In this document: positions 5,709 to 63,944 of the stretch, in pieces
Position numbering within the stretch: the stretch's first letter is position 1
Layout: each line of letters begins with the position of its first letter
Assembly (NCBI RefSeq): GCF_048403405.1
Contig: NZ_CP183129.1
Source of the DNA: Escherichia coli
GTDB taxonomy: Bacteria; Pseudomonadota; Gammaproteobacteria; Enterobacterales; Enterobacteriaceae
Direction: 5' to 3' (one strand)
DNA length: 64,000 nucleotides
Notes under the pieces: generated by a model
What the model saw: only the letters and a program-made list of their open reading frames with translations
The model's database searches: none
What the model was told of the DNA's origin: nothing
Translations under genes and position numbers: made by a program

Positions 5709-5784
5709 GCCCGGATAGCTCAGTCGGTAGAGCAGGGGATTGAAAATCCCCGTGTCCTTGGTTCGATTCCGAGTCCGGGCACCA
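5709..5784 (+). tRNA. pheU: tRNA-Phe (anticodon GAA)
   Basis: 76-nt sequence GCCCGGATAGCTCAGTCGGTAGAGCAGGGGATTGAAAATCCCC...GGTTCGATTCCGAGTCCGGGCACCA with canonical D and T-psi-C arms, anticodon loop tGAAa and encoded CCA end. Confidence 0.97.
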
Positions 5785-35065: not shown

Positions 35066-36157
35066 ATGCGTTTTCTGCGCCGACCAATATCGCTGCGCCA
35101 ACGGCTGATATTGACCATTGGGGCCATTTTGTTGGTGTTTGAGCTGATCAGCGTCTTCTGGCTATGGCATGAAAGTACCGAGCAGATTCAGCTGTTTGAG
35201 CAGGCGCTACGCGACAATCGCAACAACGATCGCCACATCATGCGTGAGATCCGCGAGGCGGTCGCCAGCCTGATCGTCCCCGGCGTCTTTATGGTCAGCC
35301 TGACGCTATTTATCTGCTATCAGGCGGTACGCCGCATCACCCGCCCGCTGGCGGAGCTGCAAAAAGAGCTGGAAGCGCGCACCGCCGACAACTTAACGCC
35401 CATTGCCATTCACAGCGCCACCCTCGAAATCGAAGCGGTGGTTTCGGCGTTAAACGATCTGGTCAGTCGCCTGACCAACACGCTGGATAACGAAAGGTTG
35501 TTTACCGCTGACGTCGCGCACGAACTGCGAACGCCACTGGCGGGGGTGCGTTTGCATCTGGAACTGCTGGCGAAAACGCATCACATTGATGTAGCACCGT
35601 TAGTGGCACGGCTTGATCAGACGATGGAGAGCGTCTCCCAGCTGCTGCAACTGGCGCGTGCCGGACAGTCATTTTCTTCCGGTAATTATCAACATGTAAA
35701 ACTGCTGGAAGATGTCATTCTCCCCTCGTATGACGAACTCAGTACCATGCTCGACCAGCGACAGCAAACCCTGCTATTGCCAGAGAGCGCCGCCGACATC
35801 ACCGTTCAGGGTGATGCAACCCTGCTGCGGATGTTATTGCGAAACCTGGTAGAAAACGCCCATCGTTACAGCCCGCAAGGCAGCAACATTATGATTAAGC
35901 TGCAAGAAGATGGCGGAGCGGTCATGGCCGTTGAAGATGAAGGACCGGGTATTGATGAGAGTAAATGCGGGGAGTTGAGTAAAGCGTTTGTACGTATGGA
36001 CAGCCGTTATGGCGGGATTGGTCTGGGGTTAAGTATTGTCAGCCGCATTACACAGTTGCATCACGGGCAGTTTTTCCTGCAAAACCGGCAAGAGACTTCC
36101 GGCACGCGGGCCTGGGTACGGCTGAAGAAAGATCAGTACGTGGTAAACCAGATATAA
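35066..36157 (+). CDS. basS: sensor histidine kinase BasS (PmrB), 363 aa
   Basis: ORF track starts at TTG 35057; ATG at 35066; two TM segments, H-box (VAHELRTPL) and HATPase (EDEGPGI); matches recalled BasS. Confidence 0.9.
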   Translation: MRFLRRPISLRQRLILTIGAILLVFELISVFWLWHESTEQIQLFEQALRDNRNNDRHIMREIREAVASLIVPGVFMVSLTLFICYQAVRRITRPLAELQKELEARTADNLTPIAIHSATLEIEAVVSALNDLVSRLTNTLDNERLFTADVAHELRTPLAGVRLHLELLAKTHHIDVAPLVARLDQTMESVSQLLQLARAGQSFSSGNYQHVKLLEDVILPSYDELSTMLDQRQQTLLLPESAADITVQGDATLLRMLLRNLVENAHRYSPQGSNIMIKLQEDGGAVMAVEDEGPGIDESKCGELSKAFVRMDSRYGGIGLGLSIVSRITQLHHGQFFLQNRQETSGTRAWVRLKKDQYVVNQI

Positions 36158-36222
36158 AGAAAGCTGCTGACCACCAGCACGCTGAACACGGTAGTTAAAC
36201 TTTCATAAACACGGTTTTTCAT
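36133..36222 (-). CDS. pmrR: small membrane protein PmrR, 29 aa, convergently overlapping basS 3' end
   Basis: Hand translation of the minus strand: strong RBS ggaggagag then ATG giving MKNRVYESLTTVFSVLVVSSFLYIWFTTY*; matches recalled PmrR; overlaps the last 25 nt of basS. Confidence 0.75.
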   Translation of the reverse strand: MKNRVYESLTTVFSVLVVSSFLYIWFTTY

Positions 36223-36330
36223 TGCACTCTCCTCCGTTAACCTGGAGGAGAGTATGCGCGTCAGAGATTAAGTGAACCTTAAGACTTCAATTGGCCTGAT
36301 AAGACAGCGTCTCAGGCCATCCGTTTCAGC

Positions 36331-41937: not shown

Positions 41938-41955
41938 TTGTATTGTGATCGGTAA

Positions 41956-42031
41956 GCCGGATAAGGCGCTCGCGCCGCATCCGGCAACGATGCCGACTGC
42001 CTGATGCGACGCTGACCGCGTCTTATCAGGC
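41956..42031. repeat. BIME (two inverted REP elements) between yjdM and yjdN
   Basis: gccggataaggcgctcgcgccgcatccggc and gcctgatgcgacgctgaccgcgtcttatcaggc REP-family palindromes. Confidence 0.6.
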
Positions 42032-42096
42032 TTCCCTCTCATCTGTATAAATTTCGAACTACACTTAAGTGGCTTCTCTTAACTGAGGTCACCATC

Positions 42097-44502: not shown

Positions 44503-44516
44503 TGTGCTCGATCGAT

Positions 44517-44604
44517 CCCCTCTCCCTTGAGGGAGAGGGTTAGGGTGAGGGGGAAATGCGCACGCTGATGCCCTCACCCCGGCCCTCTCCCACAGGGAGA
44601 GGGA
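44517..44604. repeat. nested GC-rich palindromic intergenic repeat between phnD and phnE
   Basis: Two CCCTCTCCC-N4-GGGAGAGGG hairpins flanking complementary GGGTGAGGG / CCCTCACCC segments; resembles small E. coli intergenic repeat families. Confidence 0.55.
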
Positions 44605-44627
44605 GAAAACATTAAACGGAGCAATAT

Positions 44628-45407
44628 ATGCAAACCATCACCATCGCCCCACCCAAGCGCAGCTGGTTCTCGCTTCTGAGCTGGGCCATTGTACTCGCCG
44701 TGCTGGTCGTCTCGTGGCAGGGCGCGGAAATGGCCCCGCTCACGCTGATCAAAGACGGCGGCAACATGGCAACCTTCGCCGCCGACTTCTTCCCGCCCGA
44801 TTTCAGCCAGTGGCAGGATTACCTCACCGAAATGGCCGTCACGCTGCAAATCGCCGTCTGGGGCACCGCGCTGGCGGTGGTTCTCTCCATCCCCTTTGGC
44901 CTGATGAGCGCCGAAAACCTGGTGCCGTGGTGGGTTTACCAACCCGTTCGCCGCCTGATGGACGCCTGCCGCGCCATTAACGAGATGGTCTTCGCCATGC
45001 TGTTCGTGGTCGCCGTCGGTCTCGGTCCGTTCGCTGGCGTACTGGCGCTGTTTATCCACACCACCGGCGTGCTCTCCAAACTGCTTTCCGAAGCGGTAGA
45101 AGCAATTGAACCCGGCCCGGTGGAAGGTATTCGCGCCACCGGTGCCAACAAGCTGGAAGAGATTCTCTACGGCGTGCTGCCACAGGTGATGCCGCTGCTG
45201 ATCTCCTACTCCCTCTATCGCTTCGAATCCAACGTCCGCTCGGCGACCGTCGTCGGCATGGTCGGCGCGGGCGGGATCGGCGTCACCCTGTGGGAAGCGA
45301 TTCGCGGTTTCCAGTTCCAGCAAACCTGCGCCCTGATGGTGCTGATTATCGTCACGGTCAGCCTGCTGGATTTCCTCTCTCAACGGTTGCGTAAGCACTT
45401 TATCTGA
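44628..45407 (+). CDS. phnE: phosphonate ABC transporter permease PhnE, intact 259-codon ORF
   Basis: Uninterrupted [38 protein letters not shown]... with multiple TM segments and ABC-permease EAA-like loop. Confidence 0.9.
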
Positions 45408-47187: not shown

Positions 47188-48251
47188 TGTACGTTGCCGT
47201 GAAAGGGGGCGAGAAGGCGATCGACGCCGCCCACGCCCTGCAAGAGAGCCGACGCCGGGGCAATACCGATTTGCCTGAACTGAGCGTCGCCCAGATTGAA
47301 CAGCAGCTTAATCTTGCAGTAGATCGCGTGATGACCGAAGGCGGCATTGCCGACCGCGAACTGGCGGCGCTGGCGCTGAAACAGGCCAGCGGCGATAACG
47401 TCGAAGCGATTTTCCTGCTACGCGCCTACCGCACCACGCTGGCGAAGCTCGCGGTAAGCGAGCCGCTCGACACCACGGAGATGCGTCTCGAACGGCGTAT
47501 TTCAGCGGTTTATAAAGACATTCCCGGCGGCCAACTGCTTGGCCCAACCTACGACTACACCCATCGCCTGCTCGATTTCACCCTGCTGGCAAACGGCGAA
47601 GCGCCGACGCTGACCACCGCCGACAGCGAACAACAGCCGTCGCCGCACGTTTTCAGCCTGCTGGCGCGTCAGGGGCTGGCGAAGTTTGAAGAAGATAGCG
47701 GCGCACAGCCGGACGACATCACCCGCACGCCGCCGGTTTACCCCTGCTCACGCTCCTCCCGCCTGCAACAATTAATGCGCGGCGACGAAGGCTATTTGCT
47801 GGCGCTGGCCTACTCCACCCAGCGTGGTTACGGACGCAATCATCCGTTCGCAGGCGAAATCCGCAGCGGCTATATCCACGTGTCGATTGTGCCGGAAGAG
47901 CTGGGATTTGCGGTGAACGTCGGCGAACTGCTGATGACCGAATGTGAAATGGTCAACGGTTTTATCGACCCGCCGGATGAGCCGCCGCACTTCACGCGCG
48001 GCTACGGGCTGGTGTTCGGCATGAGCGAGCGCAAAGCGATGGCGATGGCGCTGGTTGACCGCGCTCTACAAGCCCCGGAGTACGGCGAGCACGCGACAGG
48101 CCCGGCGCAGGATGAAGAGTTCGTGCTGGCGCATGCCGACAACGTCGAAGCCGCAGGCTTTGTCTCGCACCTTAAACTCCCGCACTACGTCGATTTCCAG
48201 GCCGAACTGGAGCTACTCAAACGTCTGCAACAGGAGCAGAACCATGGCTAA
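47187..48251 (+). CDS. phnI: C-P lyase core complex subunit PhnI, 354 aa
   Basis: ATG at 47187 overlapping the phnH stop ([19 protein letters not shown]); ORF track starts at an upstream in-frame codon. Confidence 0.92.
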   Translation: MYVAVKGGEKAIDAAHALQESRRRGNTDLPELSVAQIEQQLNLAVDRVMTEGGIADRELAALALKQASGDNVEAIFLLRAYRTTLAKLAVSEPLDTTEMRLERRISAVYKDIPGGQLLGPTYDYTHRLLDFTLLANGEAPTLTTADSEQQPSPHVFSLLARQGLAKFEEDSGAQPDDITRTPPVYPCSRSSRLQQLMRGDEGYLLALAYSTQRGYGRNHPFAGEIRSGYIHVSIVPEELGFAVNVGELLMTECEMVNGFIDPPDEPPHFTRGYGLVFGMSERKAMAMALVDRALQAPEYGEHATGPAQDEEFVLAHADNVEAAGFVSHLKLPHYVDFQAELELLKRLQQEQNHG

Positions 48252-49089
48252 TCTGAGCGGCTACAACTTTGCCTACCTCGACGAGCAGACCAAACGCATG
48301 ATCCGCCGCGCCATCTTAAAAGCGGTGGCGATCCCCGGTTATCAGGTGCCGTTTGGCGGGCGCGAGATGCCGATGCCGTACGGCTGGGGAACTGGTGGTA
48401 TCCAGCTTACCGCCAGCGTGATTGGCGAAAGCGACGTGTTGAAGGTGATTGACCAGGGTGCGGATGACACCACCAACGCCGTGTCGATTCGCAACTTCTT
48501 TAAGCGCGTGACCGGGGTAAACACCACTGAACGTACGGACGATGCGACGCTTATCCAGACGCGTCACCGCATCCCCGAAACGCCGCTGACTGAAGATCAG
48601 ATCATTATCTTCCAGGTGCCAATCCCGGAACCGCTGCGCTTTATCGAGCCGCGCGAAACGGAGACCCGCACTATGCACGCGCTGGAGGAGTACGGCGTGA
48701 TGCAGGTGAAACTGTATGAAGATATCGCCCGCTTCGGTCATATCGCCACCACTTATGCCTATCCGGTGAAGGTGAACGGGCGCTACGTGATGGACCCGTC
48801 GCCGATCCCGAAATTCGATAACCCGAAAATGGACATGATGCCCGCCCTGCAGCTGTTCGGCGCAGGGCGCGAGAAGCGCATCTATGCGGTGCCGCCGTTT
48901 ACCCGCGTGGAAAGCCTCGATTTCGACGATCACCCGTTCACCGTTCAGCAGTGGAATGAGCCATGCGCCATCTGCGGATCGACCCACAGCTATCTTGATG
49001 AAGTGGTGCTGGATGACGCCGGAAACCGCATGTTTGTCTGCTCCGATACCGATTATTGCCGCCAACAGAGCGAGGCAAAAAACCAATGA
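48244..49089 (+). CDS. phnJ: C-P lyase catalytic subunit PhnJ (radical SAM-related, 4-Cys cluster), 281 aa
   Basis: ATG at 48244 (MANLSGYNFAYLDEQTKRMIRRAILKA); C-terminal CxxC...C...C cysteines (CAICGS...CSDTDYC). Confidence 0.93.
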   Translation: MANLSGYNFAYLDEQTKRMIRRAILKAVAIPGYQVPFGGREMPMPYGWGTGGIQLTASVIGESDVLKVIDQGADDTTNAVSIRNFFKRVTGVNTTERTDDATLIQTRHRIPETPLTEDQIIIFQVPIPEPLRFIEPRETETRTMHALEEYGVMQVKLYEDIARFGHIATTYAYPVKVNGRYVMDPSPIPKFDNPKMDMMPALQLFGAGREKRIYAVPPFTRVESLDFDDHPFTVQQWNEPCAICGSTHSYLDEVVLDDAGNRMFVCSDTDYCRQQSEAKNQ

Positions 49090-49844
49090 ATCAACCGTTA
49101 CTTTCGGTCAATAACCTGACCCACCTTTACGCGCCGGGCAAAGGCTTTAGCGATGTCTCTTTTGATTTATGGCCGGGGGAAGTGCTGGGCATCGTCGGGG
49201 AATCCGGCTCCGGGAAGACCACGCTGCTGAAATCAATCTCCGCGCGCCTGACGCCGCAGCAGGGGGAGATTCGCTATGAAAACCGCTCCCTCTATGGCAT
49301 GAGCGAAGCCGACCGCCGCCGTTTACTGCGCACCGAATGGGGCGTGGTACATCAGCATCCGCTCGACGGCCTGCGCCGCCAGGTGTCGGCAGGCGGCAAT
49401 ATCGGCGAGCGGCTGATGGCGACCGGGGCGCGTCATTACGGCGATATTCGCGCCACCGCGCAGAAGTGGCTGGAAGAGGTGGAGATTCCCGCTAACCGGA
49501 TCGACGACCTGCCAACCACCTTTTCCGGCGGCATGCAGCAGCGTTTGCAGATTGCCCGCAACCTGGTGACGCATCCGAAGCTGGTGTTTATGGACGAACC
49601 AACCGGCGGGCTGGATGTGTCGGTGCAGGCGCGCCTGCTCGACCTGCTGCGCGGCCTGGTGGTGGAGCTGAACCTGGCGGTGGTGATTGTCACCCACGAT
49701 TTAGGCGTCGCCCGCCTGCTGGCGGACCGTTTGCTGGTGATGAAGCAGGGGCAAGTAGTGGAGAGTGGGTTAACCGACCGCGTGCTCGACGACCCTCACC
49801 ATCCATATACCCAGCTGCTGGTGTCATCGGTTTTGCAGAATTGA
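49086..49844 (+). CDS. phnK: C-P lyase accessory ABC-type ATPase PhnK, 252 aa
   Basis: ATG at 49086 overlapping the phnJ stop; Walker [10 protein letters not shown], signature FSGGMQQRL. Confidence 0.93.
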
Positions 49845-49850
49845 GCCAGT

Positions 49851-49934
49851 GCCGGATACGGCGTAAACGCCTTATCCGGCCGACAAATGCGCTCCCCGTA
49901 GGTCGGATAAGACGCGTCAGCGTCGCATCCGACA
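49851..49934. repeat. BIME (two inverted REP elements) inside the phn operon between phnK and phnL
   Basis: gccggatacggcgtaaacgccttatccggc and gtaggtcggataagacgcgtcagcgtcgcatccgaca. Confidence 0.6.
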
Positions 49935-49954
49935 CCCGAACCACGAGGCGAAAA

Positions 49955-50635
49955 ATGATTAACGTACAAAACGTCAGTAAAACCTTCATCCTGCACCAGC
50001 AAAACGGCGTGCGCCTGCCCGTCTTACAACGTGCCTCGCTCACCGTCAACGCAGGCGAATGCGTGGTGCTTCACGGCCACTCCGGCAGCGGCAAATCAAC
50101 TCTGCTGCGCTCGCTGTACGCCAACTATCTGCCCGATGAAGGGCAAATCCAGATCAAACATGGTGACGAGTGGGTAGACCTGGTCACTGCGCCAGCGCGC
50201 AAAGTGGTGGAAATCCGCAAAACCACTGTCGGCTGGGTGAGCCAGTTTCTGCGCGTCATCCCGCGTATTTCGGCACTGGAAGTGGTGATGCAGCCTCTGC
50301 TCGATACCGGCGTACCGCGTGAAGCCTGCGCCGCTAAAGCCGCCCGATTACTGACGCGCCTGAACGTGCCTGAGCGCCTGTGGCACCTTGCGCCATCAAC
50401 CTTCTCCGGCGGTGAACAACAGCGCGTCAACATCGCCCGCGGCTTTATCGTCGACTACCCTATTCTGCTGCTCGACGAACCCACCGCCTCGCTGGACGCC
50501 AAAAACAGCGCCGCGGTGGTGGAACTAATTCGCGAAGCCAAAGCCCGTGGCGCGGCCATCGTCGGCATTTTCCATGACGAAGCCGTACGCAATGACGTCG
50601 CCGACCGCCTGCACCCAATGGGAGCCTCTTCATGA
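49955..50635 (+). CDS. phnL: C-P lyase accessory ABC-type ATPase PhnL, 226 aa
   Basis: ATG at 49955 ([21 protein letters not shown]); Walker [10 protein letters not shown]. Confidence 0.93.
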
Positions 50636-51768
50636 TTATCAATAACGTTAAGCTGGTGCTGGAAAACGAAGTGGTGCACGGTTCGCTGGAGATGCAGGAC
50701 GGTGAAATCCGCGCCTTTGCCGAAAGCCAGAGCCGCCTGCCGGACGCGATGGACGGCGAAGGTGGCTGGCTGCTGCCGGGGCTGATTGAGCTGCATACCG
50801 ATAATCTGGATAAATTCTTCACCCCGCGCCCGAAAGTTGACTGGCCCGCCCATTCAGCGATGAGCAGCCACGACGCGCTGATGGTGGCAAGCGGCATCAC
50901 CACCGTACTGGACGCCGTGGCGATTGGTGATGTGCGCGACGGCGGCGATCGGCTGGAGAATCTGGAGAAGATGATCAACGCCATCGAAGAGACGCAGAAA
51001 CGCGGCGTCAACCGCGCCGAGCACCGCCTGCACCTGCGCTGCGAACTGCCGCACCACACCACGTTGCCGCTGTTTGAAAAACTGGTGCAGCGCGAACCGG
51101 TGACGCTGGTATCGCTGATGGACCACTCGCCAGGCCAGCGCCAGTTCGCCAATCGCGAGAAGTATCGCGAATATTATCAGGGCAAATATTCCCTCACCGA
51201 TGCGCAGATGCAGCAGTACGAAGAAGAGCAATTGGCGCTCGCCGCACGCTGGTCGCAGCCAAATCGCGAAACCATCGCCGCAATGTGCCGCGCGCGACAC
51301 ATTGCGCTCGCCAGCCACGATGACGCCACGCACGCCCACGTTGCCGAATCCCACCAGCTTGGCAGCGTGATCGCCGAATTTCCCACCACGTTCGAAGCGG
51401 CAGAAGCCTCGCGCAAGCATGGCATGAACGTGCTGATGGGCGCGCCGAATATCGTGCGCGGCGGTTCGCACTCCGGCAACGTGGCGGCCAGTGAACTGGC
51501 GCAGCTTGGCCTGCTGGATATCCTCTCTTCCGACTACTACCCCGCCAGCCTGCTCGATGCGGCATTTCGCGTCGCCGATGACGAGAGCAACCGCTTTACG
51601 CTGCCGCAGGCGGTGAAGTTGGTGACCAAAAATCCGGCGCAGGCGCTTAATCTCCAGGATCGCGGGGTGATTGGCGAGGGCAAACGCGCCGACCTGGTGC
51701 TGGCGCATCGCAAGGGCAATCACATTCATATCGACCACGTCTGGCGTCAGGGTAAAAGGGTGTTCTGA
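50632..51768 (+). CDS. phnM: amidohydrolase-family PhnM (ribosyl-triphosphate diphosphohydrolase), 378 aa
   Basis: ATGA overlap with phnL; metal-dependent hydrolase motif region HTDNLD. Confidence 0.93.
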
Positions 51769-52325
51769 TGACGGGAAAACTGATTTGGTTAATGGGGGCC
51801 TCTGGCTCCGGAAAAGACAGTCTGTTGACGGAACTCCGCCAGCGGGAACAAACTCAGCTACTGGTAGCGCATCGCTACATCACGCGCGCCGCCAGCGCCG
51901 GAAGTGAAAACCATATCGCCCTGAGCGAGCAGGAGTTTTTTACCCGCGCGGGGCAAAATCTGCTGGCCTTAAGCTGGCACGCTAACGGCCTGTATTATGG
52001 CGTCGGCGTCGAGATTGACCTCTGGCTGCACGCTGGATTTGACGTGATGGTCAACGGCTCACGCGCCCATCTGCCGCAGGCGCGGGCGCGCTATCAATCG
52101 GCGCTGCTGCCCGTTTGTTTACAGGTTTCGCCGGAGATCCTGCGCCAGCGCCTCGAAAACCGTGGTCGTGAAAATGCCAGTGAAATTAACGCCCGACTGG
52201 CACGCGCTGCCCGCTATACTCCTCAGGATTGTCTTACGCTCAATAATGACGGCAGCCTGCGCCAGTCGGTCGACAAGCTGCTGACGCTGATTCATCAGAA
52301 GGAGAAACACCATGCCTGCTTGTGA
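51768..52325 (+). CDS. phnN: ribose 1,5-bisphosphate phosphokinase PhnN, 185 aa
   Basis: P-loop GASGSGKDS; overlaps phnM stop. Confidence 0.93.
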
Positions 52326-61796: not shown

Positions 61797-63944
61797 ATGA
61801 AAAAAGTCGTCACGGTTTGCCCCTATTGCGCATCAGGTTGCAAAATCAACCTGGTCGTCGATAACGGCAAAATCGTCCGGGCGGAGGCAGCGCAGGGGAA
61901 AACCAACCAGGGTACCCTGTGTCTGAAGGGTTATTATGGCTGGGACTTCATTAACGATACCCAGATCCTGACCCCGCGCCTGAAAACCCCCATGATCCGT
62001 CGCCAGCGTGGCGGCAAACTCGAACCTGTTTCCTGGGATGAGGCACTGAATTACGTTGCCGAGCGCCTGAGCGCCATCAAAGAGAAGTACGGTCCGGATG
62101 CCATCCAGACGACCGGCTCCTCGCGTGGTACGGGTAACGAAACCAACTATGTAATGCAAAAATTTGCGCGCGCCGTTATTGGTACCAATAACGTTGACTG
62201 CTGCGCTCGTGTCTGACACGGCCCATCGGTTGCAGGTCTGCACCAATCGGTCGGTAATGGCGCAATGAGCAATGCTATTAACGAAATTGATAATACCGAT
62301 TTAGTGTTCGTTTTCGGGTACAACCCGGCGGATTCCCACCCAATCGTGGCGAACCACGTAATTAACGCTAAACGTAACGGGGCGAAAATTATAGTCTGCG
62401 ATCCACGCAAAATTGAAACCGCGCGCATTGCGGACATGCACATTGCACTGAAAAACGGCTCGAACATCGCGCTGTTGAATGCGATGGGCCATGTCATTAT
62501 TGAAGAAAATCTGTACGACAAAGCATTCGTCGCTTCCCGTACAGAAGGCTTTGAAGAGTATCGTAAAATCGTTGAAGGCTACACGCCGGAGTCGGTTGAA
62601 GATATCACCGGCGTCAGCGCCAGTGAGATTCGTCAGGCGGCACGGATGTATGCCCAGGCGAAAAGCGCCGCCATCCTGTGGGGCATGGGTGTAACCCAGT
62701 TCTACCAGGGCGTGGAAACCGTGCGTTCTCTGACCAGCCTCGCGATGCTGACCGGTAACCTCGGTAAGCCGCATGCGGGTGTAAACCCGGTTCGTGGTCA
62801 GAACAACGTGCAGGGTGCCTGCGATATGGGCGCGCTGCCGGATACGTATCCGGGATACCAGTACGTGAAAGATCCAGCTAACCGTGAGAAATTCGCCAAA
62901 GCCTGGGGCGTGGAAAGCCTGCCAGCGCATACCGGCTATCGCATCAGCGAGCTGCCGCACCGCGTAGCGCATGGCGAAGTGCGTGCCGCGTACATTATGG
63001 GCGAAGATCCGCTGCAAACTGACGCGGAGCTGTCGGCAGTACGTAAAGCCTTTGAAGATCTGGAACTGGTTATCGTTCAGGACATCTTTATGACCAAAAC
63101 CGCGTCGGCGGCGGATGTTATTTTACCGTCAACGTCGTGGGGCGAGCATGAAGGCGTGTTTACTGCGGCTGACCGTGGCTTCCAGCGTTTCTTCAAAGCA
63201 GTTGAGCCGAAATGGGATCTGAAAACGGACTGGCAAATCATCAGTGAAATTGCCACTCGTATGGGTTATCCGATGCACTACAACAACACCCAGGAGATCT
63301 GGGATGAGTTGCGTCATCTGTGCCCGGATTTCTACGGTGCGACTTACGAGAAAATGGGCGAACTGGGCTTCATTCAGTGGCCTTGCCGCGATACTTCAGA
63401 TGCCGATCAGGGGACTTCTTATCTGTTTAAAGAGAAGTTTGATACCCCGAACGGTCTGGCGCAGTTCTTCACCTGCGACTGGGTAGCGCCAATCGACAAA
63501 CTCACCGACGAGTATCCGATGGTACTGTCAACGGTGCGTGAAGTTGGTCACTACTCTTGCCGTTCGATGACCGGTAACTGTGCGGCACTGGCGGCGCTGG
63601 CTGATGAACCTGGCTACGCACAAATCAATACCGAAGACGCCAAACGTCTGGGTATTGAAGATGAGGCATTGGTTTGGGTGCACTCGCGTAAAGGCAAAAT
63701 TATCACCCGTGCGCAGGTCAGCGATCGTCCGAACAAAGGGGCGATTTATATGACCTACCAGTGGTGGATTGGTGCCTGTAACGAGCTGGTTACCGAAAAC
63801 TTAAGCCCGATTACGAAAACGCCGGAATACAAATACTGCGCCGTGCGCGTCGAGCCGATCGCCGATCAGCGCGCCGCCGAGCAGTACGTGATTGACGAGT
63901 ACAACAAGTTGAAAACTCGCCTGCGCGAAGCGGCACTGGCGTAA
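61797..63944 (+). CDS. fdhF: formate dehydrogenase H, selenocysteine-containing (in-frame UGA = Sec140), 715 aa
   Basis: Two ORF-track ORFs (61797-62216 and 62265-63944) are in the same frame across TGA at 62214-62216; N-terminal 4Fe-4S cysteine motif CPYCASGCKINL; matches recalled FdhF. Confidence 0.93.
62214..62260 (+). other. selenocysteine UGA codon plus downstream SECIS stem-loop
   Basis: TGA followed by cacggcccatcggttgcaggtctgcaccaatcggtcggtaatggcg, which can form the SelB-binding hairpin. Confidence 0.8.

Follow-up and report, generated by a model that had tools for sequence, protein, structure and literature searches.

The 110 nucleotides between phnK and phnL in the stretch of Escherichia coli DNA analyzed here (64,000 nucleotides of contig NZ_CP183129.1, hereafter the window) hold an ordinary E. 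coli REP doublet, present as a single copy and of the sort called an "atypical BIME". The kind of element is already catalogued, and the same copy is found in the K-12 reference genome. The doublet sits in the only non-overlapped junction of phnG-P, and we place slightly better than even chances on a role in which it would act as an exonuclease barrier and mildly attenuate transcription, biasing expression toward phnC-K over phnL-P. A first-pass annotation had suggested that the repeats could be exonuclease barriers or partial terminators that uncouple phnLMNOP from phnC-K. The barrier or partial-terminator reading appears to fit both the anatomy of the junction and the usual behavior of operon-internal REPs; "uncouples" looks too strong, and we prefer to say that the element may bias expression.

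The limits of the gap, 49845-49954, are given by the open reading frame list and by the RefSeq annotation of strain TUM14771, which is 100% identical to the window over 6 kb (identity to K-12 is about 95.5%). The phnK stop codon (TGA, 49842-49844, plus strand, from the same annotation) lies 6 nt before the first paired base of REP-1. This first unit (49851-49884, plus strand) is y-type and in the iREP orientation on the mRNA strand, with a 30-nt stem-loop at 49851-49880 and a CGAC tail at 49881-49884; an inverted-repeat search recovers it as an imperfect palindrome with 14-nt arms that are 93% complementary. A 13-nt linker, AAATGCGCTCCCC (49885-49897, plus strand), free of an IHF consensus, joins it tail-to-tail to REP-2 (49898-49934, plus strand), a z1-like unit of 37 nt in the REP orientation that comprises GTAG at 49898-49901 and a 32-nt stem-loop at 49902-49933. 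REP-1 and REP-2 are mutually inverted, their tails facing each other over the linker. The remaining plus-strand positions, 49935-49957, form the unstructured translation-initiation region of phnL, with the Shine-Dalgarno sequence GAGG at 49945-49948 and the ATG at 49955-49957; CGAACCACGAGGCGAAAAATG of this region is common to E. coli alleles that bear another repeat. The window has 6 matches to the REP tail consensus, against 0.74 expected; REP-1 fits it with one mismatch and REP-2 with none.

Palindromes, tail consensus and RNA folds confirm the earlier assignment of paired inverted REP palindromes (a BIME) to this junction, and its 110 bp separation and placement of the repeats match the stop at 49842-49844 and the start at 49955. 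The same annotation held that most phn genes overlap or abut, and this is true of every other phnF-phnP junction in the window. The sole other large gap of the operon, 125 nt, lies between phnD and phnE.

In RNA folds of the window allele, REP-1 and REP-2 are separate, independent hairpins: REP-1 is predicted at -20.6 kcal/mol (z -5.2; 12 bp with a C/U bulge) and REP-2 at -19.9 kcal/mol (z -6.3; 12 bp with a 2x2 internal loop). The entire gap folds at -48.4 kcal/mol (z -4.8), with 0 of 200 shuffles as good, and the Shine-Dalgarno sequence and start codon of phnL are left unpaired. At the other end, the predicted lower stem of REP-1 reaches into the phnK stop codon. Because REP-1 begins 6 nt past that stop, a terminating ribosome must melt it, and such ribosomes might stall there, so that the mRNA would be cleaved, PhnK tmRNA-tagged and PhnK output lowered. 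Liang, Rudd and Deutscher are said to have set, in 2015, a stop-to-REP limit of about 15 nt for stalling of this sort, and the spacing found here falls within it. According to a report cited in the RepRanger article (PMC12306157), close to half of E. coli REPs can make ribosomes stall shortly before the stop codon, and the mRNA is cleaved endonucleolytically. Against this, the sequence offers no obvious reason to lower PhnK alone, and PhnK and PhnL can bind jointly as a double dimer in Phn(GHIJKL)2 (PMC9947105). Stalling at REP-1 is distinctly improbable in our judgment; it is compatible with a stabilizing element and not exclusive of it, and if it did occur REP-2 would stay the constant barrier.

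REPs are a RAYT-associated family with hundreds of copies in E. coli, of which they are the commonest small palindromic repeats. The typing of REP-1 and REP-2 as y, z1 or z2 was made by consensus sequences, not by a model, and is provisional. Both units are G+C-rich imperfect palindromes of 30-40 nt with an internal mismatch or bulge, as expected of E. coli REPs. They are extragenic, lying between a stop and a start codon, and repeated, with similarity to both REP325 and REP324 as found in MG1655. By convention a REP is a palindrome with GTAG at its 5' foot, which reads CTAC on the complement (Ton-Hoang et al., PMC3333891); REP-2 has its GTAG at 49898-49901, and the CGAC of REP-1 is one change from CTAC, a G/T difference at 49882, with CTAC present at this position in MG1655 and 4 other alleles. 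As an observation in its own right, the change from CTAC to CGAC in the window affects the complement of GTAG, the motif required for REP transposase binding (PMC3333891). The arrangement of iREP(y), 13-nt linker and z1-like REP, tail to tail, is that of a generic BIME.

As to the BIME subclasses, the doublet resembles BIME-1 (RIP/RIB) in combining a y and a z1-like unit, in single copy and in inverse orientation. BIME-1, however, has a long conserved L linker, frequently with a site for IHF binding, and a search for the IHF consensus WATCAANNNNTTR found no match within or near the phnK-phnL element; BIME-1 was ruled out because the linker is short (13 nt) and the IHF consensus absent. BIME-2, built of tandem y and z2 copies, was likewise ruled out, as this is a single unit with no z2 REP, REP-2 being 37 nt and z1-like. 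The Rfam model RF02564 (naRNA4) matches the element at 39.0, 40.9 and 29.5 bits, below the gathering threshold of 59.5; the model was derived from the REP325 array, and the sub-threshold matches fit membership in the REP family. In Rfam searches of the region and of the whole window, the element matched no RNA family besides these.

The repeats might instead work as DNA, the BIME being a site bound or cleaved by gyrase, IHF, Pol I or HU that would organize supercoiling or the nucleoid around the long phn unit. BIMEs as a class do bind these proteins (PMC3184786; PMC3333891). Here the missing IHF consensus and the 13-nt linker in place of a long L motif argue otherwise, gyrase cleavage is reported for BIME-2 (in a title cited by PMC12306157 and PMC3184786) and the doublet is not a tandem y/z2 array, and in Harris 2026 REPs showed no role in the nucleoid or in long-range contacts. 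A DNA-level role is very improbable.

The element is presumably REP322 or REP323 in the numbering of the Harris 2026 preprint, a label that follows from order alone, because the neighbors there are REP321 (yjcO-gltP), REP324 (phnD-phnE) and REP325 (yjdM-yjdN). In the papers searched, no mention of a REP between phnK and phnL was found.

MG1655 carries the same 110-nt element with three SNPs, at 49848, 49858 and 49882. This divergence of 3/110 is to be compared with 97/699 (13.9%) at the four-fold sites of phnJ-phnN (binomial p of about 8e-5), so that the gap is about 5-fold less diverged than the adjacent four-fold sites. Among 7 alleles from diverse lineages there are 7 variable columns and not one broken base pair: 2 of the columns are paired and interchange through G-U/A-U, 1 is in a bulge, 1 in a loop, 1 in the CTAC tail and 2 in the 5' spacer. 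In the covariation analysis of the 7 E. coli alleles, 100% of cells were paired, with only two one-sided changes and none compensatory. Selection on the hairpins and ribosome binding site could account for the low divergence of the gap, and so, equally, could gene conversion between REP copies or a short recombination tract. The low divergence and the kept pairing count for the barrier and attenuation role; gene conversion, as a possible cause of the low divergence, counts against resting that role on selection.

Some observations on these haplotypes may be added. The MG1655 allele (L001:5897-6006), with CTAC intact and a G at the position of 49858, is predicted to form a single long REPIN-like hairpin at -61 kcal/mol, against the two hairpins at -48.4 of the window allele. 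The four-fold divergence of 13.9% over phnJ-phnN (48244-52325), with few amino-acid changes, seems high within E. coli. Only eleven records are at least 99% identical over 1 kb. This suggests that the phn haplotype of the window is old or imported.

The phnK-phnL junction was scanned in 5,426 complete E. coli genomes. The REP doublet allele is found in 4,838 (89%), and another 545 (10%) have a 176-nt gap taken up by a G+C-rich palindromic repeat of unrelated sequence, CCCTCTCCC-N-GGGAGAGGG ... TTAGGGTGAGGGG. All that the two alleles have in common is the stop codon at their left end and CGAACCACGAGGCGAAAAATG at their right; both inserts therefore lie in exactly one slot. The alternative repeat may be of the "BoxC" family. 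One genome, strain RMDEC465, has an allele in which three REPs adjoin a divergent phnL 5' end. In this allele (L083:746-912) the y REP is retained, and after it come a z2-like REP, a long linker rich in A+T and a second y REP. The sequence around the phnL start diverges (ATGATCCGC...), and the whole resembles a joint made by recombination at the BIME.

Relatives were surveyed through 80 species retrieved by PhnL. An empty junction of 7-9 nt (e.g., TAAGAGGCGAACATG) is seen in Leclercia, one Enterobacter, one Citrobacter, Hafnia, Shimwellia and Cedecea neteri, and REPs of the species' own, in 1-3 copies, occupy the junction in Kluyvera, Lelliottia, E. cloacae, E. asburiae, C. werkmanii, Pluralibacter and one Cedecea. 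Three tandem GGGAGAGGG-type units are present in L040. This contig, labeled Pseudocitrobacter faecalis DSM 27453, has a 298-nt gap (2203-2500) with units of about 60 bp and a fold of -156 kcal/mol; its PhnL protein is 100% identical to that of the window, with 92-93% identity in DNA, and the species label may need checking.

Over the 80 species the median K-L gap is 25 nt, with values of 0 or below in only 4 of them, and the median gaps over the same loci are -8 for I-J, -4 for J-K, -4 for L-M and -1 for M-N. K-L is the sole junction in phnI-N that seldom overlaps. On these figures, it is a permissive landing site for repeats, which would land there because it is the only place in the block where an insertion damages nothing. 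Because K-L rarely overlaps in these species and the relatives with an empty junction are also non-overlapping, the loss of translational coupling between phnK and phnL is ancient and older than the BIME. The REP doublet is dispensable, not fixed in the operon and replaceable. Its absence from about 10% of E. coli and from many relatives stands against a strong effect in the barrier and attenuation role.

The same distribution invites the reading that the doublet is a neutral passenger, a selfish or hitch-hiking repeat at the sole harmless site with no measurable effect on phn expression. Its presence in close relatives is patchy, empty junctions of 7-9 nt work fine, an unrelated repeat substitutes for it in the 545 E. 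coli genomes, and K-L is the only open junction. REP-terminated genes, moreover, show no general lengthening of half-life (Harris 2026 preprint), a result that counts against the barrier and attenuation role as well, and phnL is not below phnK in the LB data considered below. Two points tell against complete neutrality. The gap is some five times less diverged than the flanking four-fold sites, every substitution keeping the pairing, and two hairpins of -20 kcal/mol, transcribed and untranslated, are expected to hinder 3'-5' exonucleases as documented REPs do. We consider a wholly neutral element unlikely, while giving it a real chance of being correct. On present evidence the doublet is probably a tolerated, possibly mildly useful passenger, and not a required regulator.

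A further reading of the same alleles is that selection keeps strong RNA structure at the phnG-K / phnL-P boundary, and that this place is filled convergently by whichever palindromic repeats are available. If so, the REP doublet in 89% of E. coli, the GGGAGAGGG-type repeat in 10%, the three copies in L040 and the species REPs of six other genera would all be fillers of one hairpin slot, and conservation of the gap five times better than at neighboring four-fold sites would follow. This is improbable, and we raise it tentatively.

Scans of both strands for terminators found no U-tract or terminator-like site after either hairpin (REP-2 is followed by ACCCGAACCACG), and scans of both strands of the gap for promoters found no promoter-like (sigma-70-like) site; inspection by eye of the minus strand inside phnL revealed no promoter-like site. 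An intrinsic (Rho-independent) terminator was dropped, the hairpins having no U-tract, as was an internal promoter for phnL-P, for which the scans of both strands were empty. Small open reading frames across the gap, on either strand, were set aside as mechanical only. RNA-seq under phosphate starvation, at 2 h and 4 h, assembled a full 14-gene phnC-P transcript, with coverage that falls along the operon (PMC3734233). Because there is no U-tract and no promoter, and because the full transcript forms under phosphate starvation, any termination at the BIME would be weak.

In low-expression samples of the same study the assemblies break at K|L, giving phnG-K in one and phnL-P in another, the latter assembly having its putative "TSS" 133 nt within phnL (PMC3734233). 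Together with the falling coverage, the breaks are indirect evidence for a REP stabilizer or attenuator. The breaks may be due only to the discarding of non-unique reads from the repeats. In LB, the baseMean values are 9.9 for phnG, 16.3 for phnH, 19.2 for phnI, 16.4 for phnJ, 32.3 for phnK, 118.2 for phnL and 43.2 for phnM (Harris 2026 supplement). The phnL reads (118) exceed those of phnK (32), the reverse of the upstream bias that the barrier and attenuation role would give, and this counts against that role; the counts are near background, and the spike just downstream of the BIME could represent antisense reads or a cryptic start. The phn operon is silent in 3'-end maps made from rich medium.

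The separate phnG-K and phnL-P assemblies and the phnL spike in LB are what would be expected were the BIME a true operon boundary, ending a phnC-K transcript and leaving phnL-P to a promoter of its own. That arrangement is barely credible. It would have to do without a U-tract terminator or sigma-70-like promoter on either strand, the full phnC-P transcript is assembled on induction, and the supposed start of phnL-P falls well within phnL. In addition, PhnL ATPase activity is required for growth on phosphonate (PMC9947105), and phn is described as a single unit of 14 cistrons (PMC3734233, PMC9947105). The need for PhnL ATPase, with the binding of PhnL to the core complex together with PhnK (PMC9947105), likewise argues against a strong effect of the doublet in the barrier and attenuation role.

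Transcripts on the other strand have also been recorded. The supplement of Li et al. 2013 has an antisense segment of 481 nt (MG1655 v2 4315582-4316062) that corresponds to about 50291 to 49811 on the minus strand of the window; as given there, it begins inside phnL, spans the BIME and stops 34 nt into phnK. The scans turned up no promoter-like site for it. If selection does maintain structure at the phnG-K / phnL-P boundary, the palindrome may also cap this antisense RNA starting inside phnL (Li 2013 supplement). With respect to Rho, the part of the Harris 2026 supplement dealing with Rho-binding sites that overlap or lie near REPs has REP321 and REP324 among the matches listed; REP322 and REP323 are not among the matches listed in that part of the table, which is no evidence of absence.

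Returning to the barrier and attenuation role, the process that we envision would begin with endonuclease cleavage downstream of the doublet, after which the hairpins would stop PNPase and RNase II, and phnC-K fragments would outlast those of phnL-P. Modest, partly Rho-dependent attenuation at the hairpins is possible as well. The distance from the phnK stop to the phnL Shine-Dalgarno sequence is about 100 nt here versus 1-2 nt in the relatives with an empty site; phnL would therefore need de novo initiation, and the extra ~100 nt would abolish any coupling of the two genes by termination and reinitiation. The net result would be a mild upstream bias, with PhnC-K in excess of PhnL-P and the operon not split. 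Such a bias is seen for REP-containing tandem gene pairs generally, whose median log2 upstream/downstream ratio is 0.96 vs -0.09 in controls (Harris 2026 preprint).

The closest known parallel is malE-malF, where the half-life of malE is 3.5 min and that of malFG 1 min (PMC5927463). Both junctions have inverted REP hairpins in an untranslated gap within an operon, without a U-tract, and in both the upstream segment is expected to outlive the downstream one (PMC5927463). The malE-malF effect, though, has been measured, whereas the phnK-phnL junction is known here from sequence, and there is no obvious need for PhnK in large excess over PhnL. REP325, between the tandem genes yjdM and yjdN 8 kb upstream in the window, belongs to the same family and has been found by experiment to be both an attenuator/terminator and a stabilizer (Harris 2026 preprint). 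Its units in MG1655 align at 78% to the phnK-phnL doublet, but REP325 of MG1655 is a y/z2 array of 12 hairpins and the phnK-phnL element a single y/z1-like doublet; because of this difference any effect at phnK-phnL is expected to be much weaker. The yjdM-yjdN gap of the window itself (41955-42032) has one naRNA4-type BIME unit (Rfam, 87.5 bits, above threshold) where MG1655 has the 12-hairpin array.

The other REP doublet of the phn operon is REP324, at phnD-phnE of MG1655. Its z1-like REP is 92% identical to REP-2, but its units are head to head where those of phnK-phnL are tail to tail, and in the window it is replaced by a repeat of the CCCTCTCCC/GGGAGAGGG type. The phnD-phnE gap of the window (44503-44628) has two CCTCTCCC-N-GGGAGAGG palindromes plus TTAGGGTGAGGGG and folds at -72 kcal/mol (z -8.2). 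This allele occurs in 357 of the 5,426 E. coli genomes and is of the same repeat family as the phnK-phnL replacement in 545. Two unrelated families of palindromic repeats thus alternate at both open phn junctions, K-L and D-E, among E. coli strains.

The element is of little consequence in itself: its family is the best known among the repeats of E. coli, and the same copy is present in K-12. An effect, if measured, would add one more case of expression tuned by REPs within an operon and might hint at the amount of PhnL-P required by the C-P lyase core. What remains mildly interesting is evolutionary, namely the alternation of repeat families and the conservation of the doublet far beyond neighboring four-fold sites. 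The natural allelic series at this one junction (REP doublet, unrelated repeat, or the empty gap of relatives) offers a clean test bed for the "context-dependent terminator/stabilizer" model of REPs. Elsewhere in the window, the Rfam matches above threshold are the STnc630 sRNA (36126-36291, minus strand, 183 bits), a tRNA (5709-5781, plus strand) and a SECIS element (62209-62263, plus strand).
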